A stretch of DNA of 64,000 nt from Catajapyx aquilonaris. Its lineage: Eukaryota. How positions within the stretch are numbered: position 1 is the first letter of the stretch; the number at the start of each line of letters is the position of its first letter. The stretch is from contig KZ538494.1 in the NCBI GenBank assembly GCA_000934665.2, positions 1 to 64,000 on the forward strand, read 5' to 3'. Position numbers and translations under genes: made by a program. Below, piece by piece: positions 5,261 through 47,900 of this stretch. Below the pieces are notes generated by a model. That model did not search any database, was not told where the DNA came from, and was given only the letters and a program-made list of their open reading frames with translations.

Positions 5261-8200
5261 CTGCAACACAAAATGCAAGTGATAAAGTGCTGCAATGTAG
5301 TTCATGTGAGCCATACGTACCTCCGTCTGGACCATGGCTGGACGCTGAGTGCGCAAAATGCGCACTGTCTGGAAGACGTCCACAACACCCTCGTACTGCA
5401 TGCGCTCCAGGACGATACTCAAGGTAATAAACACTCCGGTGCGACCTACTCCAGCACTAAGGAAGACATGAAAAAATGACGTCAGTAATCACGTAGTTGT
5501 AAATGAGGTAAAAAAAAATTAGTGACATATTGTAAGCCAACGTCATGTCTAAGGCTATGAAATGTTGGAAAACAAAATGTGTTAATGCAACATAATCTGA
5601 CCTGCAGTGCACTGTGATTGGCCCATCCTGCCCAAACTGCTCCTTGGTCTTGTGCACCTGTCCGATGAAGTCGATGAATCCTTCCCCAGACTTGGGAACC
5701 CCCTGCTCCGGCCAGTCGATAAACTGGAACTGCCTGACGGTGCGTGACTGTCCGTCCCTGGCATCGGTCACCTTGAACTCTCTCAGGATGTACTGGGGCA
5801 TGTTGTATTCAGCGATGGGCTCCACCACATAGCAGGCGTACCTGGCAGACCTCTCGCTGGGCCAGTACTGATGGCACTTCTCCCTCCCCAGCTCCTTCAG
5901 CTTGGTTAGCATCACCACAATAGTGGAATTGTGCTCCCACAGCATGCGCCAAAAGTCCTCTGTGGTTTCGGCCAGGGGACCTTGGGTGGCAATATATGCA
6001 TTGCGGTAACGGTAGCCATCGATGAAGCTGGCGTTGATGTAATCGCTGCCTTCCACTCCACGCAGCGGTGAGATGCACACTCGGGCAGACTCAAACGGAA
6101 GGATGTTTACTAGCCGGTTCTTAAACTTGTTGCATGGAAGGTTGGCACTCACAAAGCGGGTGGAGTCTGCCTTGATGTTGGCCAGCCTCTGCAGCGGTAT
6201 AGGTAATCATTGACAAGACTTCGTGATACTTTTTCGTATGTAAATGCCAATTGCATGCTGAATGTCACGGCAACATTTGGAAACTCATCACTAAATGTAG
6301 TGAACTGTTAGGAAAGTGCCTTTTGGTTTAAAAATTACTACTGTGCGCTAGTGTTGCCAAGACACTTTTCAATCATGCAGTGGAACATGAGCCTACTTGG
6401 AACAGTACAGGCCCAGAGTTGGCAATCTTGCAAATCCATCGATAGAATGTACAACAATGTACTTATGTAACAATGTTTAAAGAGGCTCTTGCAGGCATGA
6501 AAGTTGTGCAAGTACATTACACAAATGGTGCGCATTACATAAACTGCAGCTGTTGCAACCATTTGCTTAGCAGATAAAGTAATACCAAATGAACAGTGCA
6601 AGTATTTTTGCACCACTAATTTTCCACCAATGTGTAATGGACAAGAACATGTGCCACATGCAATAAAGGCATCCAATTGATATATGAATTTTAAAGCAAT
6701 GGCAGTCAGAAACTATTACGCAAAAGTGAGAGTGTGTTGCGCAAACATTGACGGCAATGCGAAAACGCAACATGTAATTTGTAATCAACTAGAGGCAAGG
6801 TCTTAATATGGACCGCTGGCCTCCCATTGCTTTAAAATGAGTAAGTGAATAAGGAAGAAAAACACAAACACAGAGACTAGGAGTGTGTAGTGTACCATAA
6901 ATACCTTGAACTCCAGCTCCATCCCCGTGATGTTCTCCCCCAGCTCGGTCTGCATCAGTTTCTGTATGTGGTTGTGCAGGTTACGAGCAGGGATTTCTGT
7001 GTGACCGCAAATTACAGCCTCAAGCAGCGCATCATGGATGAAGATGTACTGGTCCTCGGTCTGCACCATGTAGTTCCTCTGAGCTCGCAGGCAAGTAACA
7101 TGGCCGTATATGTCCACAGTTTTCTCGTGCTTGAGCCGCTCTAGCATCGAGTCGATAACAATGAAGCAGCCTGTGCGACCAACTCCTGCGCTGCAATGAA
7201 CCACCATGGGTCCAGCCTCCATTGGGTTCACATTCTTTACGCGGCGGAGGAACATCAGGAAAGGAGCCGGGTGGTCAGGGACACCATGGTCTGGCCAGGC
7301 CGTGAATTGGAACTGGCGGACTTCTCTCCTCTCTGGGTGACCAAGCTGAGAGGTAGCACAACATGAAGGTTAGTTGTCTTCATTATACCGCCTTATATCA
7401 TGAACAACAATTTACTTACCCTTTGCAGTTGGAATGTACGTATGCAGTACGTAGCCAGATCCTGAATGTCCGTAAGAGTGACGGACACAGGCCCATATGT
7501 CTCAGTCCCTCTGGATGGCCAGTACTGGTCACATTTGATCCTGGCCCTCTCCTCCAGGCGGGTCATCATGACCACGGTGGCACTTCTGAGCTCCCAACAC
7601 ATGCGCCAAAAGTCAGCAAAAGTGTCTGGAAGGGGCCCCTGGGTTGCCACGTACGCATTGTGCTTGCGGTAGCCATCGCAGAAGTTGGCATTGATGTAGT
7701 CGCTACCAGGAAGTCCCTCCACCGCCTGCAGCACCACACGAGAGTGGTCGTAAGCTATCACATTGGCGTATCTGTTCTTGCTCTTGTTCACGTCTAGGTT
7801 GGAGTTGTCCCATGTAAACTGCTGCCCTGGTTCAATACTCTGAAAAATTTATCACAGAACATCAGTTTAGTTTGATACTGGGGGCAGCTTTCCCATACTT
7901 GAAACAGACATCAAATGTTGAATCACATGCACATGGCTTACCTCATACTCTTGCGAGAAGAGCAAGTTATCACTTGACTTCAGTCGGTCGATGTGATTGG
8001 AGAGATCAGCCACTGGGATGGGTGGATGTGACATCATCCCTGGAGTCTGGAAGTTGAGCCTGCGCATCTCCACTGGATCCGACGCAGGGTGAAAAGCGGC
8101 TGCACTGGCAGTGCCTCCTCCTCCGAGAGTCCCTGTCCCTCCAACCCCTCCGCCACCCAGTCCTCCCAGTCCTCCCAACCCGCCTGCTCCAAGTCCTCCC

Positions 8201-11200
8201 AATCCGCCACCTCCTGCTCCACCCACACCTCCGTATTCCCCAGGAGCCATCAGGGGCTTGGTGACCGAAGCCTGCTCAGGAGTCTTGGGCATCTGGCGTC
8301 TTCTGCGTATTACCAGGATGAAGAAGACTAGGCAGCAAGTGACCATCACGGCAGCCACAACAGGACCTAGCACCCAGAGCATGCCAGGATCTTCCGCATT
8401 GCGATCTACCGCTACATCTGCACTCTCCACTGGCACATAAGGATTTGGGCGATGCGGAAGCTGGCCAGGTGGGATCTCACGCATGTCTAGAGACAACTGC
8501 TCAGAGAATGGGCTTGAAGTGTACAAATGCTGGAAAAATAAAGAAACACACAAAGAGGTCAAACTCTGAAGTCAGGTGGAGGTTGCATGACATCCCATCC
8601 TGGTGTGTGTGCATCAAAAATGCTTAATTCTCAAGGGAAGTACGTGGGAATCTGTCAGACGTAAGTGCCTTCAAATGGTTCACATATATTCCTACGATCC
8701 TGCATTGTATTCTATTTCATTACCTCATACAAATTGGCAATATGATCCTTTAGTGCTTTAATGTACGTTAATTTAATGTAACCAGGAACATTGATCACAG
8801 CAGACTTTACACTAATTTACTCCATCGACTAGGGATGCATAAACGGGTAGCAGAAGCCATGGATGGCACATCATACAACATCGACTTAGTTATTAATTGG
8901 TTCGAGTAGTGCACGGTGAGAATTGTTGACAAATAACACTGGATGCGCCCCACTTTCTTCATATTCTCTCCAACAAAAATTCGTATGGTAACAGGGGTAC
9001 TCTCTAGTATGCCAAGGGCAATGGTCCCACTGTGTTTACAACAGTTTACCATTAATATAATTAATCAAGATCAAGCTAGTCTTCATTGCTTCATTACTGC
9101 AACTAATTCAGTAATGCAAGTAAATGCTACATTTCTCTGGCTATTATTATAACAAAATGTACCCCATCCAACAACTGTCAGTCGCAAATCTTTAACAAAC
9201 ACTATTTCTTAACGACATGTCTCAATTCCATTTGCTTTTATGTCTAGGATGAGCTCCTCGACATCAGAACGCTGTCAAAATTATGCAGTACAAGACATGC
9301 CCGAAACCTACTGTACACGTATATCAGAAGAGGAAAATCAGTCTACAGCCAGGGACGCTTGTCATGCTTATGCCTGAGTGAGGGAATGCAAGTTTATGCA
9401 CTAGCGTAGGTGGGGCAGGGTCCATTACTACTTTCATATGGGGCGGAAACCAAAAATTGAAGCACATCCTGGCATTCACACTTAGCTTATTTACGGGACA
9501 CGATTCAATTAGTGCATGTCATGTAGGTGTAAGGTGTCTCAAGAATCAAGTCAGAGGGGAAAATTCTTCTCTCCATGCGCAGACAATGGATTAAGAAACA
9601 TTCTGTTCAAAAAACAGCGTATGTAAGTGGATAGTGATGCGTTAATGAGGTTGGAGTAGAGCAAGAGTAAGAGTAGACAGAGAGAGAGAGAGAGAGTATA
9701 GAAGAACGTGAAAGGTGCGTGGTGAGTGTACTTGCTTTGAAGGCTCCCACCTTCTGAGGCGTGTCAACCACAGCCCTCACAAAGATGCGGTATTTCTTCC
9801 CCTTCTCCAGACGACGGTTCTCAAAGCCCTCGAATGTCTTTGAGTCCCCCAAGGGGAACGTGTATGGGATGTTGCGCTGGAGGAATTTGGCCGCTATGTA
9901 CGGAGTGTTCTCATCCTCCTGCTTGTTGTTGCCATTCTTGTTGGCTATCAGCTGGTGGAGAAAAGACGGAGAATTTGATGTAGACCTGACATATTTTGCA
10001 CACTTATTAATGTAAATCGGCATGAGCATATGCGACATCATACCATTTTCAGTGCCCTATCACACTGTATGTAAAGGAAAGAGTAAATTAATTTATTTGG
10101 TAATGTAAAGTTAAGACTATGATGAAAAAAGTGGAAAATTACGCTTTCCATAAGATTAAATGGTGGCCATAAATGCAAAAGTGACACATACGTCATCAGT
10201 GAGGAACTGGTCCGGATTTTTGTGCAAGGTTCGCTTGTCTTCAGGAACCACGATGAGGTAGTAATGCGAGATTGGCCCATATTCCTCCGAAGCCTGTGGC
10301 AAGAAAACCACAATTTCTTCCGCATTCTGAACTCCAAAGAAGTCTGGCTTCACCATCGGTTGAGGAGCTTTTGCAAAAGAAGGTCATGTATTACAACAGG
10401 TGCAAACACTATTATGATGCAATTAGTTCTTACCGGCCATTTGAGTTGTGACTGATATCTTGGCAGGAGGTCGATAAGAGTGGTCCGTAGGAATGGCGCT
10501 TACGTTAACATTGTAGGTTGTGAAGGGAGAGAGTTCATTGATTGTGTGGGATTGGGAGTCAGGAGCGAGGAGGATGGTCCTTGGAGTAATCATCTGGGTT
10601 TGCGTAATTCCCTGAGAGTCCACAAACTCTTTGACAGCATCGAAAGAAATCTTATAGTTGACAGGATTCAGGCGGAGGGGAGGGCCCCAGGAAAGGGTCA
10701 TGCTGTGAGTGCTGACGTCATGAGCTCGCAGGTTAAGCGGCACATCTTCTGGCTTGACCTTGGCAGTCACACGTTCTGACAGGCGGCCCAGACCCTGAAG
10801 GTAAATATTTATGCAGAATTGAAAATCACTAATATTGTAACTATCATAAGGTCAAGTGCAAAGCACAGACCTATGATTATGTAATGAAAACACATGACAA
10901 TACACACCGACTTGGTCCTAGCAGCCACTGCGATGGCATACTGGGCGTTCTTCTCAAGATTAATGAGATCCGCTGATTCTGTGATGGGAACAGCCTTCTG
11001 CTGCCATTCGTCCATGTCCTCCACAGCCGTCATGGTGTAAAATATCTGGTAGCCAATGACCTTTCCACGGCTAGGCACTGTCTCCCACCAGACCTCCACA
11101 CTTGAATCAGACGTGGCCATGGCCCTCACATTCATTGGGGCACGGACAATTTCTCTCTCAGTGCGGAACTGGACATGCTCTCCATATGGGCCAGGGCCTT

Positions 11201-14200
11201 GGCGAGTATATGCTCGTACTTGAACAACATACTCAGTGTTCTCCTCCAAGTTGGAGAACACGGCCTTTAAAGTGGAAGGAGTTGGCTAGAGAATAGTTGC
11301 AAAATTTATACAATGAGGTAACAGCGTAAAAGTGTATGTGGGAACTCACCTTAGTGGAAGTGGTGTTATAATTTTGAGCAGCAGCATGATCAAGTCGCTT
11401 GTGGAACAGCACTTGGTAATTAGTCAGTTGGCCGTTTCGCATGTCAACCGGTGGAGGCTTCCACGTTATGGCCACAACATCAGCTGTTTGGAACTGGTAG
11501 GACACCTCGGAGGGTGGCCCAGATGGCACCCCTTCGGGGGTCTGGAAGAACTTGACTGCTTCCTGTCCAAAGCCAACGCTGTTCCCTCCAGCTACCCTGA
11601 ACTCGTACTCCAGGCCCCTTTCCAACTGGTCCAGCTTGTGGTGCTGCACTTTTCCTCCTTCCAGCACCAGCTCCTGCAGCTGGTCCCCACTAGGCGTGCG
11701 GGGACCCCAGCGCAGGCGATAGGCTGCCAGTTCACCAAAGGTCTGGGTCGGTCGGCTCCACTCCAGCTCCAGACTCACTTTAGAGTCAGTCTGAAGGACC
11801 CTGTTGGTGTGAAATGTTCGGTTATATTACGAAGCTCTTAACATACGGTCAAACATCGAGTAGGGTCACAATTAATATTCTCTTGCTCACAGTCACTGTT
11901 TTGTCACCAATGACAAAAATCCTTCTTTGACACGAACACTTTATGTCAAAAACGTACTTGTAATTGAGGCTTGGACGTGATGGGACACCACCAGGAGTCT
12001 TCACGTTGACAGGACTGCTGCGTGATCCATCTCCTTTTCGAGTCAGGGCAGCCACTTGCACTGCGTAACGGGTGTCTGGTTGTAGACCACTCACATTCAG
12101 CTCCTCCACATTGCCGTTAGGCACATTATAGTGAAGAGGATTGTTCAGAAGGTTGCCACCCTGCAAGAGATGAGTAATTCAACTTATTTCAAGTACTAAA
12201 GTTACTATCAAATATTCATTACACATCTGCATTGCACATTAGTCACTGGTACTTACAGTTGCCTATTTTCATACATTGTTGCAGCAATACACAGAACCCG
12301 AATGACAAATATGACTTTTAGTTCTTTGACCCAAAATAATAATGCATTGGCTCTGTTGAAACACAGATGTTCTGTTGTATTATGTAGGTTTTCCCTGGCC
12401 TTTGAAATATTGCATGTTGCAAAGCATTTCAAAATAATTAGTAGAATTTACCATAACAAGCTTGGCAGTTCAGGCGTGATATTAATTTTTCATTTGCCTA
12501 ATTTGAAATCAAGGCAATGAAAAGTAACTAACTAAACACCATCCTAAAGCCAATGAATCTTTAAGGTATAAAGTTTAACAACTTTATGATACATGGCCTT
12601 ACAGACTAATGCGGAAAATGGTAAATGCTGTACAAACCTCTTCACTAACTTCCTGAACATGAATCTGGTAGCCTCGTATTATCCCATTTCGGTCCTTCTC
12701 CACCGGCGGTTTCCACTGAACATGGATGGTAGTTGAGTTCATAGCCGTCACTTTCACTTCCTGAGGCTCTCCAGGGACTATAATGTATTGTAGTGGTGGG
12801 TGGAGTGGGTGGGCAGAAGGTGAGGGGAGAGGGTGGGGAGGACAAAGAGTAGTTTGTGAATGAGAGAAGAGAAAGAAGGCGGAGGGCAGGGAAGGGGGGA
12901 GGGCACAAATTTTTTGCTCAGATTTGCTGTTGTTACATGAAATATCAGTGGCAAGTCACCAGACACTGGTAAAACATGTACTCTCTGGCCGTCCCATGCA
13001 CAACCTCCTTGCGTTTCCCTCTGATTCCTCCTGCTCATGATGCTGAGACACATGGCATGCGCAGCTTTCACACATATCTCTTACATCCCATGCCAGAGTC
13101 AAAGTGTATTTTATTTTCAACGTTTTAGACCGGTTCTGAGTTGTGAATTTATGCCTCGAATAAGGCATGCTACACTCAAAATCATACAGAACAGAGCAAC
13201 TAAAATATGCCCAATACAAATTGAGTATCAAACTCCTGTCACCGATTACAATAGTTGAAACTTGAATGCTCTGCTTTCCATTCATCTCCATGAGCCCTGC
13301 TCATCAACTTCGCATTATGTAGTAGACATACATCTAGTACCTACAGTACAATATCCATCCCTTATTAAGTTTCCAGAGCCGTTATAATATCTTACATCAA
13401 ACTGTTGTACAACCGTGCCATTTGTGCGGAATAAAACTTTCTGTCAGATTACATTCTAATCATACCTGTCATGTTATTAATTGCTTCCTCACCATTATAG
13501 TGATTCACGAGGTGCAAATCTTACATGTGATCCAGACCAAGATGCAAATTAAAACATGTTATGGTATAATGTTCCTAAGTTTCTGATGGCACCGTGTTGC
13601 TTATTTAGCGCAATGCATTAGACCCTGCATAAATAATGTTATTCAAGATTGCACAGATATGACAATACTCACAATTGATAATGATTGTGGAGACGGAGTT
13701 AAAGCAAAATGCAATTCCCTTTCACCATCTACGAGTAAATCCTGCACCTACATTGACGTAACACTTTGACTTTGACAAAGGCTCATTCACACCCAATCAG
13801 GTGCCCTACATGATTTTTTAAAAAAGTGAAATGTACTGAGTTCCAGTACAAACTACCACTAACATTACTGCCTTACTGCAACCTAAACACAGTCTAAAGA
13901 GCAACACATATGAGCCAACTGAAGTGGTCTACACAAATGCTGGTTGCTTTTGCATGCCATTCTGGCTCCATTTTCCTGCAACTGTTGGGACACAAAGAGA
14001 AAATAATTAGCTACTACCCCTTAATATAAACCTGCAAAGAAAACTTTCTGTAAATGAAAACAAATATCGGAAGAAAAAACTACAGACACTCAGTATAACA
14101 TCTATCAGCCCATAATAATGTTACTTGGCAGCTCTAACCAATGCTGTATAATTATATATACTGCAGTGTATGTAAACCCACAATAAGATGCTGAAGGCAT

Positions 14201-15042
14201 GAAAGGGCACATAATTCACACCAATCACACAGCTAACGTACTCTAGTCAATTTACTCAAGAGGCAGAAGCCCGGCATCTCGACAAACCCACACACTGTAC
14301 GACGTTCATTACAGATGACTTTTTTCACTGGACTATGTATGTTGCACCGAGCACTGCAAGATGCTACAGAGGTGTGACCCAGAGGCAATAAGGAATGGGG
14401 GGAAGAGCCCCATGCAATACGCTGCCTTGGGAATCAGCAAACGCAATGGAGATTCTGCCTCTACAAACAGCAAAGACGGCCAGCCACAATGTAATCAATC
14501 CCTCGTCATCCATAGTATTCATTTTTTTTTTTTCATTAGCCACCAACTACGTATTACTCCTGAATTTGCTTTGCGCTGATTCTCTATATACACTATAAAA
14601 GTAACGGATAGATTACTTACTACAAGTAGTGACAGTTTCAATATCTAAACGTGATCTCATAATCACTCATTCCATTCGGTTATTCTATAGGAGAGCAACT
14701 CGAGAGAACTGAAAGAAGCTCTGGCAAACTCTAGGTAATACCAAATCTCTCCTCTGAAGACAGAATGAGAAATAGGTATAGAGAGTGAGAGAGACAGACA
14801 CAGGGCAATTAACGAATCAATCAATGATAGAGAATAAAAAACAAACATTTGAATACCAACACATGAGTGATTAGATTGTTACTTTAGCCGAGATTGTCTT
14901 GACAGGTTACAGCACACAGGCCCAAGTTGGCAAGGACTGCACTCGACTCCACTCGACAAAATTCAATCACAGTCAAGAGAGACAGAGCGAGATAGACAGA
15001 CAGGTAGTCAGAGAGAGATAGATAGAGATAGACAGAGTGAGA

Positions 15043-15074
<32 letters not shown>

Positions 15075-18000
15075 AAGAGAGAGCGAAAGATAATGAAATA
15101 AACAAGGTGAGGCAACGACATGGTAACCAATAAATCCACACTGAATCCTACAGAATGGTCGAGATGGGATCTATGCAGCTACTCTACAGATTGATACAGC
15201 AGTACAAGAGAATAAGATGCATTGGAAACAACGAACGGGACTGGTAAAACTGGCTCGGCTACAGCAACAGTTGGGAGATCGGGGAGTGTGATGAGAAAAG
15301 GAAATGCTACGGCAACAGTGAAAAATGCAACTCCACAGCATTCGCCAAGTATACTTACTGCGAACTGTTCAGAAGGACCCAAAGTTTTGTTAGTCGGGAA
15401 AAAAAGTGGAAAAAATGACAATGTGAGAGAACAGGGCTGCTCACGTCAGACAGGACTACACTACGAGTACACTAAGAGTGTTGGATATATTATATTTGAC
15501 ATATATCTGGCTGTTCCTGTGGTGTTGGTTGGTTGGTTGGTTGGTTTCTGGTTTATCGGGCGTGTGAGGCTGCATAGTGCTTTTTTTTATTTATTTTTAA
15601 TATCGAATATTTGAGTATTTTTAAAATTTTCTGTGCAATTTAATTATTATGAAAATCCCTTTCTGTATTGTGATGATGGGGCTTTATTTATTTTTTTCTT
15701 CTTCTGAATGTTCTGTCCTCTCCTCCCACTTTTCCCTCCCCCAACCCCACCCCCTTTCCCTGAAAGAAAGAAGACGAGTCTGTGTGCTGTAGCTTTTGGC
15801 CAACATGCATGCGCTCTCGTGGGCGCTCTCACATAACAGTATATCAAATCCGTATTTCTATGGAGGTGTACTGCAAGTGTCTTTGGCGCAAGTAGTAGTT
15901 GGCTGCCTTATTTGTTTAGTGCCCAGTGCAGGTGCTCAGGAGTAACGTGTGGTATTCAAATGTGCATGGTGCCTTGACACGTACGACTTCCTCCTCCTCC
16001 TCACGCAACCTTCTGTGGCTCGTTCTGACTGCTTGTTAACATTCCACCAACCATTAGGTTGCGCACTATACCTGAGCGAGGAGGAAGCGTCCTGGTGACA
16101 AAGCCATTGTGTGGTAGTAGCAATAGTAGTAGTAAGTAGTAATAAGTAGTAGTAATAGTCAAGTACTGTAGTGCTTGTAACAATCCCATAAATGGTGATA
16201 AAAACAAATTCATGACATCAAGACCCACAAGCGGTGCATAGTGCAGAATATTATAATATTCCAAAGCAATAAAGTGCAAGTGACACACTGTGGAATAGAA
16301 AAGCTGGTGGTAGTCTTTAGTGGTCATTATTTCACTCCCTGTGATGTAAAGTGAGAATGTAGGTGAATGCAAAAAAATCAACCTGGGTAGTTGATGTTGC
16401 TGCATCCACACTGTATCATCTGGAACACAACAAATTTTCTGTCGCCATCACAGTCAGTGGCATATGCTGGGTACTTCCTGGACACTCAAAAGCATCAAAG
16501 GTCGCGCTTCAATAGTCGACCAACAATATGCCAAAAAAAAAAAAAAAGTGACAGTGTCAGTGAGCAGGAAGTACCCAGAAAAATATCCTCTGGTGTGTAT
16601 GCACCCAAAGGGGCCATTTGCAGAGAGAAACCAAATGAGAGGGGGAGTTGTGCTTGTGTCATTGTGGTTATTCTGAGAGAATGCAACAAGCGGTGGTGGG
16701 AGAAGCATTTGGCTCCTATCTGGCGAGCAGATTTGAGTAAAGTGGCCTCATGATTTGGTGGTGGTGATGGTGGTGGTGGTGGTGGTGGTGGTGGCAGCGG
16801 TGGTAGTGGTAGTGGTAGTAGTACTGATTGTGGTCATGGCAGTGGTAGTTGTGGAGTGAGAATGCATTAGCGAGTGAGAAGAGACAGAGAGCAGAGAAGG
16901 AGAAGGATCGGGGGTAGTGTTAGTAGATAGTATTAGGGACAGATGTGTGGACACACGTTTCCCCAAGCCCAGAAAAACCAAGCATAGGAAATAGACTTAC
17001 AGCCCACAGTTTTTCCTCCCTTTTTTTAAAAAGTATACAAGCAAAACTTGGTCTTCAGCATCTCTGCATTTCATACTCATCGTCAGCCTTACACTCTTTG
17101 GGACCTGCTCAGGTACATGTGGGACTCACATACAATACTTTGAAACAACACTAGACAGTTCAAAATACATATTTTTGATCTAATAAAACTTTGCGTCTGG
17201 TAGCAACAACTCTTGTCTAACAAATGCAGCAATGGCATAACAGGTGGTTACACAGCAATATTAACAACAATTGTGAACACTCTTAGGAACACAGAACAAT
17301 ATTATATATATATATATCTGCCCATGACTTTGTCATCATGCCAAAATATAACGTGCATGTTGCATTGGCTTATAATCTAAGTACCACGAGGTAACCTCTT
17401 AACAATGTGAAGCTGCATTTAAAAATCAGTGGCTGTGATAAAAATACTCTCATCAGATGTTTCACAAAATACTACATTCAGTCCATCCGTGTGCAGAATT
17501 CATCCTTCTGCTCCAACTTGTGTAAAGTGGCAGTAGTTTTATAGTTTGTTACAGTTCCATCATCTAGTGATTACCTATCAATACTGCAATATTGGACCAT
17601 TCCAGAAATTGTCTCTCTTCATAAAATAAATGTGCCAAGTGCACGCTAACATAATACTGATTATTCCAGTCGACTAAGTGACATGAACTGGTAAAATTAT
17701 GTCATATGGCTGAACTTCCTTTGCTACGAATTTCATCTAAAATATAACTTGAAATATTTGGGGCAAGCTAAATACTGAACATTGCAAAAGCACATAAGAA
17801 TACTTGCTCCCTAGTTCAACCAGAACCTAAGGAAAAGAGATAACTTACAGAGCATTGCACTAACTTTTCATATATTGCGTAACTTCAGCTAATCGGTATC
17901 TTCACTAAAAAGACTTGTTTTTCTATGAACAAATATGATATTTCCAGACTTTAAGATAGAGGAAAGAAAATGATTTCCATGGGAATTGCTCTTTAAAATA

Positions 18001-21000
18001 AGGTTAATCTGACACTGGTCGTAACAGTATGAAATTACTTAGGTCCTGGTTCTCCTTGCAATGGCCTGATGCTAGCTACAAAACATTCTTACACGTCAAT
18101 TTGCCCTGACTAATAACAAGCACCTTCTGGATGACTAGGGGCAATGCTACAATCCTCATGATTTGGTCTGTTACAGATTCAGGTCAAGCGAGATCAACTA
18201 AGGTCAAACTAGGTAATAAATATAATCAGAAGTTACGCTAAAGAGTAGGTGCTCAGAAATTGTCAATCATGTGGCAGAATGCCAGACACAAATTATTACA
18301 CTTCACAAAACCGCGACAAATTATTCTCAAATTCAGTGGATGCATGATGACAAATTACACTCAAGCAATTATTGAATACAATGACTGACATCTTGCTAGA
18401 TCTTGCTTTTGGCATGATTTGGCAAGCATAAAAAAAGATTCACCAAGTGCAGATTGATAATTCCAATCCATGAAAGGTACAGTTCTGTTATTTGATATTC
18501 CTGTACAGAGATATGCACAATGTACATTAACATTTCTCCGATATTTTTGTACTACCCTTGTGAACACAGTATGATACAATTTATGGCTGGTTTGTGATTT
18601 AACATCTGAATGTGATTGGACAACAATGAGCTAGTGGCAGTAAATGAGACTTGGTGAATCCCAGAATAGGCAGAGTGTTACAATAACAAATTAAGCATTG
18701 GATACATGGCTCGAAGACAGTACAACAAAAACACAGCGAGATTTGTGGTCTTCTTTAGATGTGGGTATCTGATTTGCCCTTCCAGGAAGGTGGAGGACCT
18801 AGATATGGCGGAGGATGAGGAGGAGCAGTAGGCCCGTCATAGTAGTAGAAGGCAAAATCCTTCCGGCGAGGCTCTAGCAGTCGGGGCATGGGTGGGGCTC
18901 CTGAGTGGTGTGTAGTCGGGTCAGAGCGCCCTGGGAGGTCTTCAGTCATGAAGTAGCCAGAGCCACGCAGAGAATCAGCCAGGCCAAGGACATCATTCCT
19001 ATCCTTCAGGCGTAAGAAGGTAACAAGAACTGGACGCCTTTGCAGGGAGAATGCACGACGTGGACCAATCCTCACAGCTCTCTCTACCTCCAAGCGTGTC
19101 TGCAAGCCCAGGTGGTGATGAAGGAACACCTGGAAGGCGCTCTCCGTCAGGGCGGGATCCTCCTCCCCCTTGCTGCCTCCCCCGCTCTCCCCCTGCTCCT
19201 CCAGACCAAACAGGATCAAGTTGCGACGTCGTAACTGCAGGTCCATGTCAGCCAGGCGTGCCTCCGCTTCCTTCAGGCTGTCTCCAAGAGACACAGCCAG
19301 CTGGGAAGACTGTGTCTGCTGGTAGCGAGATATCTGAAGATCCTCCTTGAGCTGGTGCAGTTCCTCCGCCTGGATCTGTCCCCTCTCCTCCAGGCGCTCC
19401 ACCCGAGACATGGCCTCCTCCAGGAGCGCCCAAACTTCCCCTGCCTCTCCTCCTCCTCCTCCTCCTCCTCCAATCCCTACTGGTGCTGCTCCTCTTCCCA
19501 ATCCTTCCCCCCACATTGGACCAACTACTTCTCCCACTTCTCCTCTCCTTCCTCCTCCTCCAACTCCTCCATCCTTTACACGTTCCTCCTCTTCATCATC
19601 ATGACAACGCCCTGCCACCTTCCCCTGCGCCTCGTCTGGGCTGCTGCTGCAAGCACCCGCCTCTGCAAGGGAGCAGCAGCCCAAACTCAACGCTTGCTTC
19701 CCTCACTCTGCATTTGCCTCCACCTTCACGCCTTTCATCCCATACACATCATAACGTTTGCAATCCAATGACAAATAGCACTGACACTATTCACTGACTT
19801 TTAACAGGTCCAAATCAAGGCCCACTATAAGTCAAAACATTCCTTTGGAAAGAAAATTGATAGTAGCAAACTACACAATGAATTATCGTATCTAATCACT
19901 ATAATAATTAATTACAGTGTGGCTTTTTGCAAAGAGGCTACTAACTGGATGTCAGGTAACTACATAAGGCACTGCAGACCCATCATCTTATAAATCACTC
20001 CCTCATACCAATTCACACATTATCTTGCAATGATAGAACCCAGGCGGTGATTCAGGTGTTGTGTTGCCATGTCATGCATACAAAGTCTTCCACCTTGGAA
20101 TCACCCTACACATCACATATGCAACTTCACTTCAAAGACTGCTCTATTATCCCATGATATCTCCTGTGATTACTTGAGGGAGGGCGGTACGTTAGTGTGG
20201 GTCAGCAGTGCCTTATGTTGGCAACCAATTATTTCATTGCCACCTTGTTACAAAGTGATTTCAGATACTCTTTACTCAACTAGGATTATTGATGGCTCTC
20301 AGCAATTGGTTTAATTATTATAGTGCACACAAAAACTCTGCAAAAAATCCAAGTGCACTGGGTGCATCATCACTGTCACTCTCATAATCATGCCATTGCT
20401 TCATGCACAGTGACCTCATAAGCTTTCACTCTTATCAAGTAACTTCATATTTACAGTATGTGATACTGACGTGCATGATTCCTTACTGTGGTCTTCGCAA
20501 AAATGATGTAACTTCCAAAGTATGGCTTTTGACTGACCAAAAAACAATGTAACAATAAAGTCAAAGAAGACCTGAGATCACTACTGGGACATTGCAATCC
20601 CAATACTTTGACTTACCAATGGCCATGTTTACCTCTGACCATTACACAGCATTTGAACCTGAATGAGTCATTTTGTCAATGCTATTTGTACATAACTGAA
20701 TACAGGCTACTAGAATTAGGTGATTAAATATTTGCATTACTTCTTTGGTGGAAATGGCGATAACTCACATCTGAACATTAGCTGAAGTGGCTTGCACATC
20801 AAAGAAGAGTCACCCACACAGTCACCCGTCACATGTGCAGACTATATCTACTGTATCCACTATAAGCCAAGTCCTCAGCTCAAAATTCCTAACTGCTTGA
20901 GCCTGCATGCGGCATGACTATATCATTGCAGCTTACATACCCCACTGTAAGCAGACCAGTCAAATCTCGCTGTAAGGAGTCGGCAATGTCTTTTTCTAGT

Positions 21001-24000
21001 CAAATTCAACTGTTGATCACAAACCTATTTTTCACCACCTGCTTTGCCATCTCTGCAGTGATAATAAATCATGAGTGGAAGATCACTTACTCTCACAAAG
21101 CCATATTTAACAAATAAGAGCTGGACTCATTATCCATGTGTTCCCTATGATGTGCAGTGACAGATTATATAGGCTTTTCCACAGGTATTATTCCTAGCTA
21201 AAATTCTGACTGCACTTACATTACAACGGTTAATAATTGACTTATGCTTATCTGCAGTTACTTTCATCTTACAATGTCATATGACCCTGTGTTACATCTC
21301 ATAGCCTCAACTACAAAGCGCTATAAAAATGAGAAGATAACAAATACCAGAACAGCTCACTGCAAAATTGGTCATAGTGGAAAATCATTTCTCGCATTAA
21401 TTACTACACAATGTCAATCCACGATCATGGAAATAATGATATGGAACAACACCATGAAACAGAGGACAAATTGTCAAAATGACCTGTAACTAATCATAAA
21501 GTGTTATAATTTATTGTACAGAAACTTCAGCAAGGTGCCAATAAAGAAGATTGGGATTGAACACAGTGTACACTATCATAAAAATGAGTTCTGGTTTTCT
21601 CTTGCTAGTCTTAATTCTAATTGACGCAACGTGTCAGAGCAACATAAAGAAACACAATCCGTGACTCCCTTGGGGAGAATAGACTTGAAATTAGTCATAT
21701 TTGGAGTAAACAAAAAGAAAACAGATGTTAATTGAAGTTTCATAAAAAGCAACAGTTGGACCTGATAAAATTAATGTTAATGTAGTTGATTCACACTGAC
21801 CCAACTGTTTCCTCTTTGTTTCTACCTACACACAGCTAGAAACTTGCACCAAAAGGAAGTGGCAAATGGACGCTCATAACTACTGAGCACTGACTTATGG
21901 ATGGTGATTATGATGTAACTAGTAATTGCACAAAATATTTTTCTAATAGCAGACCAATTTGCACATTTATAAATTGATCAACTCTAGCTAACACTTGTAT
22001 TTGAATAATATGAAATACATCCATGTAGCATGTGCTACGATTTCAATACTTGCACCTGAGGAAAGGCTGACACTGTGCCATGAAGTTGTTATTAGAGAGA
22101 ATAGTTTTTCAAGAACTATGCAGATTGTTATGAAACTTTGAAGGACACCTGTTCCCCATGCACAGAGTATGTTCCAGTCAGAATTGTGGCCAGGGAAAGA
22201 AAAAGCACAGAAAGTGAAGTGTGATCTTCCACTGCAAGTGCAGCTGAGAAAATAAAGAGTCCCAGTGTATCAAAAGAAAGAGAGTCCCAATGGAGAGACA
22301 AGGTGGTAGAGTAACGCTCTCCTTCTGATTGTAGGACGGTGTGGATCAGCAAGGACGAGGGATACTTTAGGATCGTGGATTTGGAGAAAGAAAAGGTACT
22401 ATTGCAAAACCATTACCAATTTCCTGCACAACCCACATGCAGTGAGACATGTTTACTGATGATATAATTATGTGGTAGTCCTTTAAATCTGTATTTACAA
22501 AAAGTCAAAAAATTTAAATATGCTGCCTCAAAAAAACAGGATCAAAAACTCCATTTTATGACAATTATTACTCTACTGTCAAGAGCAGCCAGCAGATAAC
22601 TATACAGCATGGAGGTATATTTTCAAGTGCTAATAATATAATTTGTTATAAAATAATATTACTTGTGGACAATTTATAAAAGTTCTTAGATCTGCCTCAT
22701 TGTACACTAAAACATGAAATGCAATTACAAAATATGTACAAAAAATTCAAAGACTAATTTTAAATTCTGGAAGCATGTAGGCCTTGACAGCACTCATCAA
22801 GGTTAAGAGAAAATTTACAGAAGCATGTTAAAATTTATCTGAACTGAATGGTCACTTATAATAAATTTGTCATGAATCATACACAGTATTGGATTCTCAT
22901 GGAGCTTATTATGACTAGCTCCTATTGACTTGTCCTTCCTTAGATGAGGGTTACACCAAACATCTTGTACGCTCCACACTGACTTTCTGGCATCCAAACA
23001 TAGTTTTATTATTATTATTATTATTATATTTTTTAAAGCCAATTTCATCATAATGGAGAGGGTGGTATTTTCTGCAGCGAAGTATCTTTCAAGAGTCCAT
23101 GAGATTTCAACCTTATGTAACATATTTAGCACCCATACTTTCTCAAAAAAAGTAGCTTGCAGCTAATTAGTTTCAATACTGATGAAGTACATTTTTCTCA
23201 GTATAAAATTACTATGCTGGTATCTGACACAACATTCCAATTTCACTGGAGTTCAACAATACTAACATATACTTTCAGTAATATTTCAGTTTCAGTAAAA
23301 ACTGCATGTGAAATGCAGCAAAAATCTTTAAAACTTTCTGAAATTTCCAATCTCAATGTCACTGAAGAAATTCACAGAAATGTTACATTTCCCCACTCAG
23401 GTGCAGCATGAGCCTAATTACTGCAGTATATGTGATGTATACTCATGTGATTAAAAGTATTGCCATTGGCAGTAAAAAATCCATTTTGTTTCACCTGAAT
23501 AAGTTTAGGTTATGACAACCACTAACTGCTGACTGAACATCTTGACACACCAACGGCAATGGGTTACCACAGAATGGTCATGGTTCAGGGTGTGATGGTT
23601 GAATTTATGGGTAAGGTTTTGAGGTTGAGGTGAACAAGGTTAAGGCATTATAGGGTGTAGGGGGGGAAGGAAGGAGAGATAGATACATACCGTCCTCGTC
23701 GGTAGTGACGACGACTGGGTAGCTGGCAGGCCCATCCCCAACACTGGTGCCCGCCAGCACCCAGACTCGATACTGGGTCCAGCGCTTGAGTTGGTCCACC
23801 AGGAAATGGCGTGCATCAGGATTGGAGATAGTGATAGTGGCAGCCTCAGAATCTGAGCGCGAGCTCTCCACATAATGCAGCTTGTAGTAGCGAATGTCCC
23901 CGTTCTGTTGTTCAGCGGGCGGAGGGAGCCAGCGCACAAGGATGGACGTGGAGTCCTCAGCCTCTGCGCTCACGTTCTGGGGGGGGGCTCCTGGGACTGT

Positions 24001-44590: not shown

Positions 44591-44887
44591 TTCAGCTAAA
44601 ATTCAGGCTATTAATTTACAAGCTGAACTTTCTCCTTTCATATAGTTTGGAGTTGCCGCGTACAGAAGTGAGCTTTCCTACATGCAAAGTACAACGTTTC
44701 ACATGACTTCGCAATTTATGGCTACATGAATGGAAAGCAAAAAACCAGGGCCCGGAGGGGGTGAAATGATTCCGCGAGCAAAAAGCCCTAGTTTGAAAGC
44801 CCGAATAAGGTTTCGCTCATCAATAGAAATGAAAACTTAAAGAATATTAGCCTGCTCTTCCTTTATGGGCCTCCCCGATCAAGAGCC

Positions 44888-44926
<39 letters not shown>

Positions 44927-44988
44927 NNNNNNNNNNNNNNNNNNNNNNNNNNNNNNNNNNNNNNNNNNNNNNNNNNNNNNNNNNNNNN
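44927..44988. other. Assembly gap (62 N) inside a poly-C tract
   Basis: N run flanked by C homopolymers. Confidence 0.99.
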
Positions 44989-47900
44989 CCCCCCCCCCCC
45001 CCACCACCACCACCCCATATAGGCTACTAGAAAATATGTGTGCGACGGCCGCAAAAAAACAACTCCCGGTGCAAGAGAATTTACATAATCATCAAAGACT
45101 GGCATACCGGTCAGTAATTGTTGCCTGCGGCCGCACTTTTGATCTGGAAATACACGTCGCATGTTTGGCAAAGGACCGCAAAAATTCGTATCAAAAATAA
45201 GCCAACCCATTAATGTACCTATTTCTAAGACTGGCTATCATTTTGTAATTTTTACCGACTTGATTACACAAGTACTGCCCTACAACAATGGCATGTGTTT
45301 AAAATCCTACCTATTCATATTACGACGCAGCCAAGTATATGGGTGCACTGACACATTTAAAAAAAAAAACTTGGCTAAAACTCTTTCTTAAAGTTTTCTC
45401 AAATTCTACATGACCTTGCCGTCAAGCCAAATTCCGGAACAAGCTCAGTCCCGCGGTTACTACATAGTTTTGCAAGTGAAGTTTCGCGGTTCCAGGTTTC
45501 TGCGAGACGGGAGAGATCTGAACCTTACGTGTAATGTAGAGAAATGAAAAGGTTGTCGCACTTTCCTAGCAGCCCGAAATAGCTCCAGAAAGCAAGCTTA
45601 AAAATAGCCAGCCCCAGGACTTTGGAAATGGGAATAGGATAATACTAAAATTACGCAAAAAAGAGAGGAGAGAGCTGAGCAACTGTTTGCAAAGCCGTTA
45701 ATTGCAGATTTAGTTAGTGGTTATTAAATAGTTAAGCTTTGCAGTGAAGTGTCTCCTTTTACTGTCAGAATTTAATATGAGAAATACAGTATTCGTGAGC
45801 ATCGTTCTAGTGGACCTTCCTAGCAGTTGTGTCAGAAACGAAAAGATTGTTCTGGGAACCTGGTATGGCCCCTATAGTGAGCAGATTTATATTCGGTGCC
45901 ATCCAAACACTATCTGGACCGCATTGATTTTTCTCAGCCCCCTTTTCCCCCCTTCCCTTCTAGCCGTACCTGGCTGACACGCTCATTTCAACTAATAAAG
46001 CAATTGATTTGCACAAGTGCGACGGTGTTGGGCTCGGCAGCGCCATTTTTATGGCGTCAATTACGGCGCAGGAACACCGGCCGTATTCCCCCAATTCTCA
46101 TAACGATCCTGGCACCAGCTTTTCTATGCCTCCCCCCCCCCCCATCTTCCCCCCGATCTCTATATTACTCCCAAACTTCCACTCTAATCCTCCACACCAC
46201 ATGTTTTCCCCTTAGCCCGCCCACAACCGCTGCACCTTTTATGATACCTCCCGAAACCAGCATTAAATTCCTTCGATTGGATGCGCTTCGGGGGTGAGTC
46301 ATAACCAGAGAGGGAAATAAATGTGGAGCCTGCATTTGAGGTGTGGAATGAGGATCCGTTTCGTGATAAAGCCACCGAGGGGGGGCAACATACGAGTGTT
46401 TTCAAGTGCAAGCTTGGCATACAGCCAGCCTACTAAAACTGGAACGGAGGATTGGTTTTTCGGCCTGCAAAACGGTCCAGTTAAGCCGTCAATGAAAGTT
46501 GGAGAAACACTCCTTATACGAGTACAGTACGTTCTATACCTTTCCCTATATTACCCAGTACGAATGGCTACAAGTCTGAAAGCACCAATGTACATAACTA
46601 TTTAATAAGGAAAATAATTACAGACATCTTCCAAGTTTCAATATATGGACTGGGTGTGGTCCACATCTGAGATAAAGATTTCGGTCGGTTTCTTCTGGAT
46701 AAAGTATAGTGTACGTTAGCAGTGTGGGAGTGTCTTAAGGCTCTCTCTCTCTCTCGTCCGTCTCTCATGGAAGCAGCGCATTGTTCGCAAAGCTGGTCAG
46801 CGGTAGCAGTTTCCTTTTGTGGCGGAGGAAGAAAATGGTGGTGCCTAAAAGCCCAGATGCGGGTAAAAAGGAAGAGCTGCGCGGCATTAAGAAGAGGAGG
46901 CCAAAGTCCTGCAGACGCTGGGCTCCGAGCCTTATTTACGCGACAGCCTCTCAACGCCCATCGCCTTCCATCACAGCCAGCCTTCCCAACATTCCCAAGG
47001 GACCGCCTGCCTGATGCTGCACAACTCTCTTCCGCCCTTCTGCCATCATCTCTCACCGACTTCAGACTTCCTTCCGGAACTTGCTTAAGGAGTCCGGCGC
47101 CTCCATATCGCACCTGAGCCACCTTGCAATATCGCTCCATCACATATCAGCCTGCTATACACGTACTGTACAGTACACCCTGCTCTTTAATAAATAATAT
47201 TACACTGGTAAAGATGCGGATTAATCACTATGGACGATCGAATGGTGACAACAGGCTGGTGAAAGCCGGAGGTTTACCAAGAGAAATTATCATGACTGTT
47301 GCATTGGTACATTGAGTGTACAACCGGACTGATGAAGTGACTAACCTATCGTGTGTGTTCGTGCGTGCGTGCGGGGGCCGTGCGTTTATATAGGATAATC
47401 TGTTGGGTAATGGAATATTTGTGCAATGAATAAAACTCCATGACCCCACCCTTCACCTCCCGTAACCCTGCTTCGGTCATCAAGTTTCATGACTCGTATG
47501 GCCTGCATGCATCTCTATAGCATGTAGATTTTTTGTTAAAAAATAGTCTGGGTTACATAATGTATGATGTGGCAGAGCTCACCGAAGCGATGGTAATGCT
47601 CACTTGTGTGCAACACCTTCTGCGGATACATCCATTACTGGTATGAATGATTGAGTTTCATAACTTTTCAAATCATAAAGCCACATCTGGGGTGCGTCCA
47701 AACCAATTCGACATGCTATAGGGAGCAGAAAATAAAAGCAACCGGATAACAACCACGTATATTCGAGGATAATTTTGTCCGACAATAATTATTCCAGGAA
47801 GATTGTTAATTCAGAAACCCCTTTTTGACACAGAATTCAGTCAACTCATTTCAGTGTTAACGCAATGGTTTATTAGGCTCATTCCTGGAATTAAATGGGC

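Follow-up and report, generated by a model that had tools for sequence, protein, structure and literature searches.

An open reading frame within a Lar intron

The window (the whole stretch of DNA analysed, 64 kb in length) carries a Lar-type receptor phosphatase gene on its minus strand. The PTP exon of this gene matches human PTPRS (E 4e-174), and with tblastn its PTP domains share 83-86% identity with insect Lar; the best named matches of an FN3 exon are likewise insect Lar proteins, at 42-55% identity. A vertebrate host, to which the PTPRS match had pointed, was rejected in view of the insect matches of this FN3 exon. Two FN3 exons enclose an intron of 10,913 nt (12778-23690), and a long open frame lies within it on the sense strand of the gene. 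The flanking FN3 exons, on the same strand as the frame, uphold its placement in a Lar intron by an earlier note on this DNA. The features of the locus are as follows:

23691..23996, minus strand: upstream Lar FN3 exon (tblastn with insect Lar proteins; Pfam fn3, E 1.5e-15; donor of phase 1, …GAC G/GTATGT)
18755..19702, minus strand: stop-to-stop open frame encoding the protein P0001 (315 codons plus the stop codon at 18755-18757)
12638..12777, minus strand: downstream Lar FN3 exon (tblastn and Pfam fn3; acceptor of phase 1, …TATAG/TC CCT)

The earlier note had described 311 codons ending at 19690; the frame is indeed open, and its extent is 315 codons, to 19702. The first in-frame ATG, at 19516-19518 (aa 63), has C at -3 and would give a protein of 253 aa, the length that had been proposed; the second, at 19411 (aa 98), would give 218 aa. 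Upstream of the first ATG the frame stays open for 62 codons, and directly before the frame there are a short upstream ORF and an in-frame stop. All of the protein motifs quoted in the note are present in the P0001 translation.

The frame differs from its surroundings in composition, with a GC content of 0.59 across the ORF compared with 0.36-0.40 in the flanking intron; the description of a GC-rich frame in an AT-rich intron is therefore correct. At a resolution of 50 nt, the GC-rich island extends over about 18750-19750, and both of its edges are within about 50 nt of the ORF ends. Values of GC1/GC2/GC3 in the core are 0.71/0.41/0.67, which is coding-like and near the values of the host exons. 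CpG is 0.42 in the ORF, 0.41 and 0.22 in the flanking intron and 0.43-0.66 in the exons; CpG depletion was considered as an age clock for the ORF and set aside as uninformative, the starting value being unknown. The other five frames of the ORF stretch contain 5-13 stops. When the 945 nt were resampled with a first-order Markov model, none of 5000 resamplings remained open, and for the core (aa 88-264) the fraction open across 5000 Markov resamplings was 0.0016.

Kinship and predicted architecture of P0001

Searched singly, P0001 has no match to PF02994 (Transposase_22) in Pfam, even at E up to 10, and a single-sequence search of the PDB returns only coiled-coil and Gly-run noise. In addition, several overlapping frames are also long. 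From these results the frame could be open by chance, in DNA rich in GC and in repeats, and unrelated to ORF1p; the family-level comparisons speak against this. In the protein library, 91 proteins match P0001 across aa 90-290 (E 1.8e-10 to 1e-3), the closest of them with 38% identity. A family HMM made from 52 of the 91 relatives, with the query P0001 left out, scores P0001 at 128.3 bits as opposed to a maximum of 3.8 for 200 shuffles, and P0001 is its sole match among the 1695 six-frame ORFs of the window. The family profile in turn matches human L1 ORF1p (2ykp, E 8.3e-21; also 2ldy, 5e-16, and 2w7a, 2.8e-11). When the AlphaFold model, with its confident RRM fold, is submitted to Foldseek, the 11 best matches are all human L1 ORF1p (best E 3.2e-6). 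The profile score, the profile match to L1 ORF1p, the Foldseek result and the resampling together refute a chance origin, to which we give practically no weight.

The failure of Pfam extends to the family, since PF02994 is matched by six of the 91 relatives, all under the 22.4-bit cut-off. Thus the comparison with L1 ORF1p and Transposase_22 that had been suggested is borne out by the family profile and by Foldseek, with no match to the Pfam Transposase_22 entry. The ESM Atlas has matches to eukaryote clusters at 0.91 and, at 0.89-0.90, to some clusters that carry Baculo_FP_2nd; at the thresholds used, Baculo_FP_2nd has no match among the 91 relatives. The terminal branch of P0001 is long, 1.47 compared with a median of 0.64.

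Genomic context was taken from 29 related metagenome loci found by a scan with an 11-row alignment. In 13 of them, endonuclease and/or RT ORFs follow ORF1 directly on the same strand, and for the ORF2 of two of these 13 loci the best match among solved chains is human L1 ORF2p. Profile, fold and genomic context thus agree with the proposal that the protein has the coiled coil and RRM of a LINE ORF1p, and from sequence and model the identification of P0001 as a LINE type II ORF1 (ORF1p-type coiled coil plus RRM) is strongly supported. We use ‘LINE type II ORF1’ as the safer of the names because the same architecture is found beyond the L1 clade; the available text of PMC4120745 describes it in the CR1, L2 and R1 clades as well.

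The protein can be divided into four parts:

19442..19702, minus strand: Gly/Glu-rich low-complexity N-terminal stretch, aa 1-87 (translation; triplet repeats)
19229..19450, minus strand: coiled coil, aa 85-158 (predicted single helix; predicted parallel homotrimer)
18935..19228, minus strand: RRM domain of L1 ORF1p type, aa 159-256 (model, Foldseek and family profile)
18758..18934, minus strand: degenerate C-terminal domain (CTD) remnant, aa 257-289, followed by a Pro/Tyr-rich tail, aa 290-315 (pairwise BLASTP, leave-one-out score and pLDDT)

Within the N-terminal stretch, GGA/GAG-type triplet repeats are located at 19447-19471 and 19540-19575, in keeping with the GGA-repeat composition noted before. 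AlphaFold pLDDT is about 42-53 over most of this stretch, and GC3 is only 0.39, unlike the core.

From about aa 91 onward the coiled-coil helix is modelled at a block pLDDT of 94-98, and its leave-one-out family score is 14.2 bits (median 20.3). A three-copy model of P0001 scores 0.80, with 0.20 for the best control; of the solved same-chain pairs 21 of 30 attained that mark, as against none of 23 single chains, counts that apply only roughly here because the calibration used two copies and the job three (the alignment was unused). The runs share at least 97% of contacts, with a partner pLDDT of 86. A similar trimer has already been solved, so the high score may reflect a structure that the model had already seen. 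The coiled coil of P0001 is accordingly described as a predicted homotrimer.

The following region has the RRM order of strands and helices, with pLDDT mostly above 90. Its leave-one-out score is 81.9 bits (median 103.4; 8 of 52 members score lower), and the family-conserved residues R158, R159, N161, G166, R211, R223, L245 and D255 are retained. The CTD scores 0.0 bits in the same comparison (median 40.8; 5 of 49 members lower), and from aa 260 onward the AlphaFold model is disordered, with pLDDT of about 46-58. A weak remnant still aligns with relatives in pairwise BLASTP. A CTD hidden by a compensated pair of frameshifts was considered as well; the two other frames, read by eye, bear no likeness to the family consensus, and a six-frame scan with the family HMM gives no extra match in the region. 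By sequence comparison and by model, the CTD of P0001 is lost or degenerate.

The closest known counterparts are the human and mouse L1 ORF1p (2ykp, 2yko, 2ykq, 2w7a and 2ldy; the type II ORF1 of Khazina and Weichenrieder), in which a non-canonical RRM likewise comes after a long parallel coiled coil. They also form a homotrimer, which for P0001 is a prediction. Identity in the structural alignment is about 18%. Further differences are that L1 ORF1p needs its CTD, which in P0001 is degenerate and predicted to be disordered; that P0001 has no PF02994 match and is not followed by an ORF2; and that the Lar gene of the host animal resembles insect Lar.

Element parts and further copies

Between 12.2 and 26.3 kb there are 122 ORFs with a length of 45 aa or more; Pfam finds only the two fn3 exons in them, and no endonuclease or RT. 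With 14 ORF2 pieces from related elements, tblastn against the whole 64-kb window gives a best E of 0.26 and thus no trace of ORF2. There is no A-rich tail by the stop codon, the nearest run of at least seven A being 1.7 kb off, and neither AATAAA nor ATTAAA occurs on the minus strand within 2 kb downstream of the ORF. No target-site duplication was found: the longest word common to the two 190-nt flanks is 7 nt, a length reached in 398 of 500 shuffles. A pair of 24-nt direct repeats (18347-18370 and 19768-19791, 75% identity) was rejected as a duplication, with no adjoining tail and a null flank test. The lack of an endonuclease or RT ORF, a poly-A tail and a target-site duplication had been stated in the earlier note, and the Pfam, tblastn and flank searches are all null. 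The same note had mentioned other decayed transposon relics in the window; this part could not be reproduced, since no other transposon protein domain was found there.

Further copies and close relatives were sought at several scales. Within the 64-kb window, the family HMM finds no second copy of ORF1 among the six-frame ORFs. Four DNA runs of the probable source sample contain the stretch, and a fifth run under the same species label has almost none of its words. In contigs from three of the four and from the fifth, a search with the ORF core at 80% likeness returns only low-complexity snippets of 24-40 nt; the contigs of the locus itself (about 16.8-22.5 kb) are also absent from the result, which therefore says nothing about copy number, and neither do the parts without cover. 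Among 1.84 billion cluster representatives there is no orthologue or close paralogue of P0001, the best having the 38% identity given above. Word-indexed protein searches with the whole of P0001 and with aa 90-300 give no match, and no close relatives were found in viral and prokaryote contigs.

An ORF1 without an ORF2 could be a non-autonomous retroelement that was moved in trans by an ORF2-encoding LINE, as in HAL1 (half-L1). HAL1 is a multi-copy retroposed family, and Bao and Jurka (2010) reportedly described it as consisting of ORF1-only LINE derivatives. The ORF1 studied here is complete on its 5' side, has a clean end and lacks an ORF2, and one of the related metagenome loci (L008) also has an ORF1-like ORF with no EN or RT match in the 4.3 kb downstream. 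On the other side, there is no 3' tail, poly-A or duplication here, the window contains no second copy, and no other source-run contig matched the core (an unreliable result, as the locus itself was missing from it). A degenerate CTD is also unexpected for a mobile copy. We regard such an origin as improbable.

A possible unused remnant or a possible host-kept protein

The reading that we prefer, at roughly even odds (a probability of about 0.5), is that the P0001 ORF is a mobile-element remnant with a frame that is still open and, we infer, unused by the host. On this reading it is the first ORF (type II ORF1) of a LINE retrotransposon encoding endonuclease and RT. ORF1 is left alone, in sense orientation in the 10.9-kb phase-1 Lar intron; the remainder of the element (ORF2, 3' tail and target-site duplication) is gone, the CTD has degenerated, and triplet repeats have come to occupy the N-terminus. 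Translation of the frame would give a protein with a disordered head rich in Gly and Glu, followed by a coiled coil of three parallel strands with an RRM on each chain. Such a protein would be a trimeric RNA binder, but it would lack the CTD, which L1 ORF1p uses alongside its RRM.

We favor an unused remnant because the CTD is lost, the head is microsatellite-like with low GC3, canonical poly-A signals are absent from the 2 kb downstream, a short upstream ORF and an in-frame stop directly precede the frame, and the terminal branch is long. No orthologue cluster is seen, as the best library match is so distant, and this was counted in the same direction. Unused LINE fragments are also far commoner than co-options of ORF1p. 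Very few such co-options have been described in the available text of PMC4161310 and PMC12129022.

Other observations count against a remnant. The coiled coil and RRM are near family levels and the CTD is lost, the pattern of decay expected from selection on part of a protein. The edges of the GC island lie within about 50 nt of the ends of the ORF, which random deletion would rarely leave. LINE insertions are usually 5'-truncated, and thus an ORF1 without ORF2 requires a further event. The missing duplication and tail hint that the insertion is old, and in a neutral copy of that kind stops or frameshifts would be expected. The coding-like composition of the core, close to that of the host exons, was counted on this side as well, and so was the lack of any longer match in other source-run contigs, which is unreliable for the reason given above.

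We also consider, tentatively and with clearly less confidence, that two domains of a LINE ORF1p, the coiled coil and the RRM, have been retained by the host while the CTD was not, either as a stand-alone gene or as a terminal exon of Lar. The earlier note had proposed an exapted gene, a proposal that has the intactness of the frame as its basis. A domesticated gene nested in the Lar intron, making a trimeric RNA-binding protein of 253 or 218 aa that is selected for its coiled coil and RRM, seems to us rather unlikely. Its role, equally doubtful, could be that of an RNA chaperone, a condensate protein or a LINE inhibitor mixing into ORF1p trimers. In its favor are the intact 315-codon frame with its 128-bit family score, the retention of coiled coil and RRM with the CTD gone, the predicted trimer (three-copy score well above the best control), the coincidence of GC island and ORF, the host-like GC3 of the core, and the absence of any ORF2 trace, duplication or tail. 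Precedents are L1TD1 (PMC4161310) and the ORF1-derived exons in the available text of PMC12129022. Such a gene is made less likely by the lack of an orthologue or close paralogue in the cluster representatives and word-indexed searches, by the absence of a canonical poly-A signal within 2 kb, by a first ATG that has C at -3 and a short upstream ORF before it, by a head made of a triplet-repeat tract, and by its low prior.

L1TD1 stands as a precedent for ORF1p domestication, being an ORF1p-derived coding sequence without ORF2 in the available text of PMC4161310. L1TD1 itself is conserved among eutherians as a gene, its expression is known and there is evidence that it has been under selection, whereas P0001 is known from sequence alone.

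The second form of host use would involve one additional feature:

19663..19664, minus strand: acceptor-like AG (the sole one in 19440-19760; 70% pyrimidines in the preceding 20 nt)

In this alternative, P0001 would be encoded by an alternative last coding exon of Lar, with the FN3 donor at 23691 spliced to the AG at 19663-19664 and the ORF1 frame kept. Such an exon would start with base 19662. Its phase with respect to the ORF1 frame would be 1, and the host intron is of phase 1 at both ends. The 62 open codons upstream of the first ATG and the sense orientation of the ORF fit this arrangement, and the ORF1p-like exons in the available text of PMC12129022 are first or last coding exons. Agreement in phase has a one-in-three chance, however, and we take it to be a coincidence of sequence only; the pyrimidine tract is weaker than those of the true Lar acceptors, and a canonical poly-A signal is absent. 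The product would carry the Gly/Glu-rich linker, the coiled coil and the RRM on a truncated ectodomain. It would be comparable to NUP42-L1 and USP4-L1, isoforms with an ORF1-like exon as their last coding exon, but it would have no membrane anchor and an extracellular RNA-binding domain, which makes little functional sense. The chances of such an exon, and of such a fusion product, appear slim.

The comparison with known fusion isoforms can be extended from the available text of PMC12129022. As in P0001, the ORF1-like sequence in Lyosin (MYL4), L1-RFX5, NUP42-L1 and USP4-L1 lies in sense within a host gene. [quoted passage not shown] For Lyosin and L1-RFX5 there is no RepeatMasker or RepeatModeler overlap, and the authors suggest that fragmentation has put the ancestral LINE copies beyond detection. 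In two of the three further exons dN/dS is 0.32-0.41. The phase-compatible acceptor-like site of P0001 is a further point of likeness. The isoforms differ from P0001 in being annotated transcripts conserved across 5-13 species, where P0001 is the genomic sequence of one species. A Lar fusion would also differ from them in being extracellular and truncated.

The host genes and exons derived from LINE ORF1p in the available text of PMC4161310 and PMC12129022 are L1TD1 and four fusion isoforms, all of them from vertebrates. The RefSeq screen of the latter (four genes) covers vertebrates only and has no bearing on this animal. The literature searched, within its available text, gave no ORF1p co-option outside vertebrates.

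If P0001 is a remnant only, it is an ordinary retrotransposon piece. It is then of use as a caution for annotation, since it escapes Pfam and can be recognized only through profile and fold. If it is selected, an ORF1p in an invertebrate Lar intron would lengthen the short list of host genes and exons derived from ORF1p, and the coiled coil and RRM without the CTD would appear once again as a reusable module.

An ORF1p-like protein within a Lar intron

The frame encoding the query protein, P0001, lies in the sense orientation within an intron of a gene for a Lar-type receptor tyrosine phosphatase with Ig, FN3 and two PTP domains, on the minus strand of the window.

Features of the ORF and its intron
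18755..19702, minus strand: stop-to-stop frame of 315 codons, from translation of the window
19516, minus strand: first in-frame ATG (aa 63), giving a 253-aa product, from frame reading
19411, minus strand: second in-frame ATG (aa 98), from frame reading
12778-23690, minus strand: ORF-bearing Lar intron of 10,913 nt, between two FN3 exons
23691-23996, minus strand: FN3 exon upstream of the intron, junction phase 1
12638-12777, minus strand: FN3 exon downstream of the intron, junction phase 1
19662, minus strand: would-be first exon base after the sole acceptor-like AG preceding the first ATG, phase 1, matching the host intron

An earlier note had described a GC-rich uninterrupted frame in an AT-rich intron, and this holds: GC content is 59% across the ORF stretch versus 36–40% in the flanks. 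The motifs that it quoted are all found in the translation, and the predicted 253-aa product is borne out by frame reading. The remaining five frames contain 5–13 stops each. When the 945 nt are resampled with a first-order Markov model, none of 5000 sequences stays open, and the fraction open is 0.0016 for the core only; thus, the openness is not due to composition, and a chance frame is so improbable that it can be set aside. In the core (aa 88-264), GC1/GC2/GC3 are 0.71/0.41/0.67, resembling host exons, and codons 1-87 consist of Gly/Glu-rich triplet repeats with a GC3 of 0.39.

Searches with P0001 alone are uninformative: Pfam gives no Transposase_22 match even at E 10, the PDB search with the single sequence returns only noise, and word-indexed protein searches, with the whole protein or with aa 90-300, give no match. 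Against 1.84 billion cluster representatives, an exhaustive search finds 91 proteins (E 1.8e-10 to 1e-3, 25–41% identity), all aligned within aa 84-309. The alignment used here, A1, combines P0001 with 52 of these 91 relatives; the other 39, among them the greater part of the long or fused matches, were omitted by choice. An HMM of the 52 relatives, with the query excluded, gives P0001 a score of 128.3 bits across aa 95-264, and 200 shuffles of the core reach at most 3.8 bits. The same HMM matches nothing else among the window's 1695 six-frame ORFs. The A1 profile matches human LINE-1 ORF1p (2ykp, E 8.3e-21; 2ldy, 5e-16; 2w7a, 2.8e-11).

Structure prediction, proposed earlier as a check, agrees. 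With A1, AlphaFold2 gives a mean pLDDT of 73.5, with a single coiled-coil helix (aa 85-158), an RRM (aa 161-254, pLDDT mostly above 90), and disorder in aa 1-84 and 260-315. In a Foldseek search of the PDB, human L1 ORF1p takes the top 11 places (best E 3.2e-6, TM 0.54 on target), followed by ordinary RRMs. The LINE ORF1p-like identity of P0001 is confirmed. Three copies of aa 85-260, modeled without an alignment, are predicted to form an in-register parallel trimer with a score of 0.80 (best control 0.20). In a calibration that used two-copy jobs, that mark was attained in 21 of 30 solved same-chain pairs and in none of 23 single chains. The trimer runs show at least 97% contact agreement and a pLDDT of 86; the score may owe something to a similar trimer that has already been solved.

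Conservation differs by domain in leave-one-out scoring. P0001 scores 14.2 bits for the coiled coil (family median 20.3; 19 of 50 members lower), 81.9 for the RRM (median 103.4; 8 of 52 lower) and 0.0 for the C-terminal domain, or CTD (median 40.8; 5 of 49 lower). The near-invariant RRM residues of the family are retained in P0001. Despite the 0.0-bit score, a remnant ([17 protein letters not shown]) can still be aligned to relatives by pairwise BLASTP, so the CTD was formerly present, was kept in frame and has diverged past recognition.

Related LINEs and the parts missing here

Scanning metagenome contigs with an alignment of 11 rows gives 29 related loci. These contain 100 ORFs of 120 aa or longer, of which 40 were scanned for domains: plus-strand ORFs lying downstream of the match, one lying upstream, and five of the ORF1-like ORFs. 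At 13 of the 29 loci (L002, L003, L004, L005, L007, L009, L014, L015, L017, L021, L022, L026 and L029), Exo_endo_phos and/or RVT_1 ORFs come after the ORF1-like ORF on its strand; 14 of the other 16 have under 1.1 kb of downstream sequence, and L018 (2.6 kb) and L008 (4.3 kb) show no endonuclease or RT ORF. The family is LINE ORF1. At L008, the ORF1-like ORF (L008:2768-3601) adjoins an MFS transporter-like ORF (L008:234-1889) and may be another solitary ORF1.

The best solved-chain match of two related ORF2s is human L1 ORF2p (E 1.9e-18 and 5.6e-34), which does not fix the clade because few LINE clades are in the PDB; this 'type II' ORF1 (coiled coil, RRM and CTD) is reported from the L1, CR1, L2 and R1 clades (PMC4120745). 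In a quick tree, ORF2-linked ORF1s fall on both sides of the midpoint, and P0001 has a terminal branch of 1.47 (median 0.64) and no supported close sister.

Some relatives are fused to other domains. A NADAR domain (E 1e-27 to 1e-40) follows the coiled coil and RRM in 6 of the 91 (P0003, P0027, P0029, P0037, P0078 and P0085) and at one metagenome locus, L013:278-1615, a recurrent architecture whose members form supported groups in the quick tree. P0082 (278 aa), a fusion or else a gene-model chimera, combines an ORF1-like RRM part with immunoglobulin domains (Ig_3, E 7e-20). In the quick tree, its RRM part adjoins P0064 (listed with P0093), a hypothetical protein of 124 aa from two notothenioid fishes, on very short branches.

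In the window, endonuclease and RT domains are absent, as the earlier note had reported, from 122 ORFs of 45 aa or longer at 12.2-26.3 kb (the first 150 of 186 listed for 12.2-32 kb, minus 13 overlapping the ORF and 15 beyond 26.3 kb). They are likewise absent from 117 of the 162 ORFs of 75 aa or longer in the rest of the window, a set scanned apart from 33 ORFs in the region of the Lar 3' exons and 12 past 61.85 kb. Fourteen ORF2 pieces from related loci give nothing better than E 0.26 against the whole window by tblastn. The reported lack of a poly-A tail and target-site duplication likewise stands: there is no A-run close to the stop and no duplication was found around the ORF. An element that moves with ORF1 only is an improbable explanation of such a frame.

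Several further features of the window can also be listed. A 21-nt inverted repeat (19962-19982 / 20198-20218), with 95% complementarity and 215 nt between its arms, closely precedes the ORF on the Lar sense strand and may mark the termini of a small inverted-repeat element. At 18242-18385 (plus strand, opposite to the ORF and 400 nt past its stop), a match of 11 residues ([11 protein letters not shown]) with the family's conserved RPIIVKF strand is most likely chance, given its E of 5.6. A CT-rich low-complexity tract reading poly-Pro spans 16498-16833, where the contigs of the source runs break. The window's 62 N apparently fall in a similar tract near 44.9-45.1 kb (about 44.84-45.2 kb), as an X-run in translated 44841-45197 suggests.

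Host gene and possible host use

One PTP exon matches human PTPRS (E 4e-174). A vertebrate-type Lar, suggested by this match, was dropped: the best named matches of one FN3 exon are insect Lar proteins (42–55% identity), and the PTP domains are 83–86% identical to insect Lar by tblastn. The juxtamembrane exon (7420-8532, minus strand) aligns over 372 columns with 293 residues of insect Lar and thus is longer by roughly 80 residues. Read on the opposite strand, 8093-8437 is Pro-rich, which points to a GGN-rich insert, consistent with the GGA-like composition noted earlier for this exon.

LINE fragments without a use are common. Very few co-options of ORF1p have been described (PMC4161310, PMC12129022). 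In literature searches on ORF1p co-option, not aimed at Lar together with ORF1, the cases came from vertebrates only and none was named within Lar. An unused remnant is further favored by the lost CTD, the microsatellite-like head, the stop and short upstream ORF immediately preceding the frame, the absence of both AATAAA and ATTAAA from the 2 kb that follow the frame on the minus strand, and the lack of an orthologue in very large protein collections, including the 1.84 billion cluster representatives.

For exaptation, on the other hand, the frame is intact though the insertion hallmarks are gone, and the GC-rich island (about 18750 to 19750, in 50-nt steps) ends within about 50 nt of the ORF at both sides. 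Retention of only the coiled coil and RRM looks like selection and follows the pattern reported for ORF1-derived exons (PMC12129022). Domestication gains no firm support from this evidence and is not refuted by it. A stand-alone domesticated gene is unlikely, though the foremost of the alternatives. An alternative terminal exon of Lar, to which the sense orientation and the phase-1 acceptor-like AG would be suited (the phase agrees one time in three at random), is slightly less probable even than the ORF1-only element. Other readings share the remaining odds. We put the probability that the ORF is an unused LINE ORF1 remnant at about 0.5.
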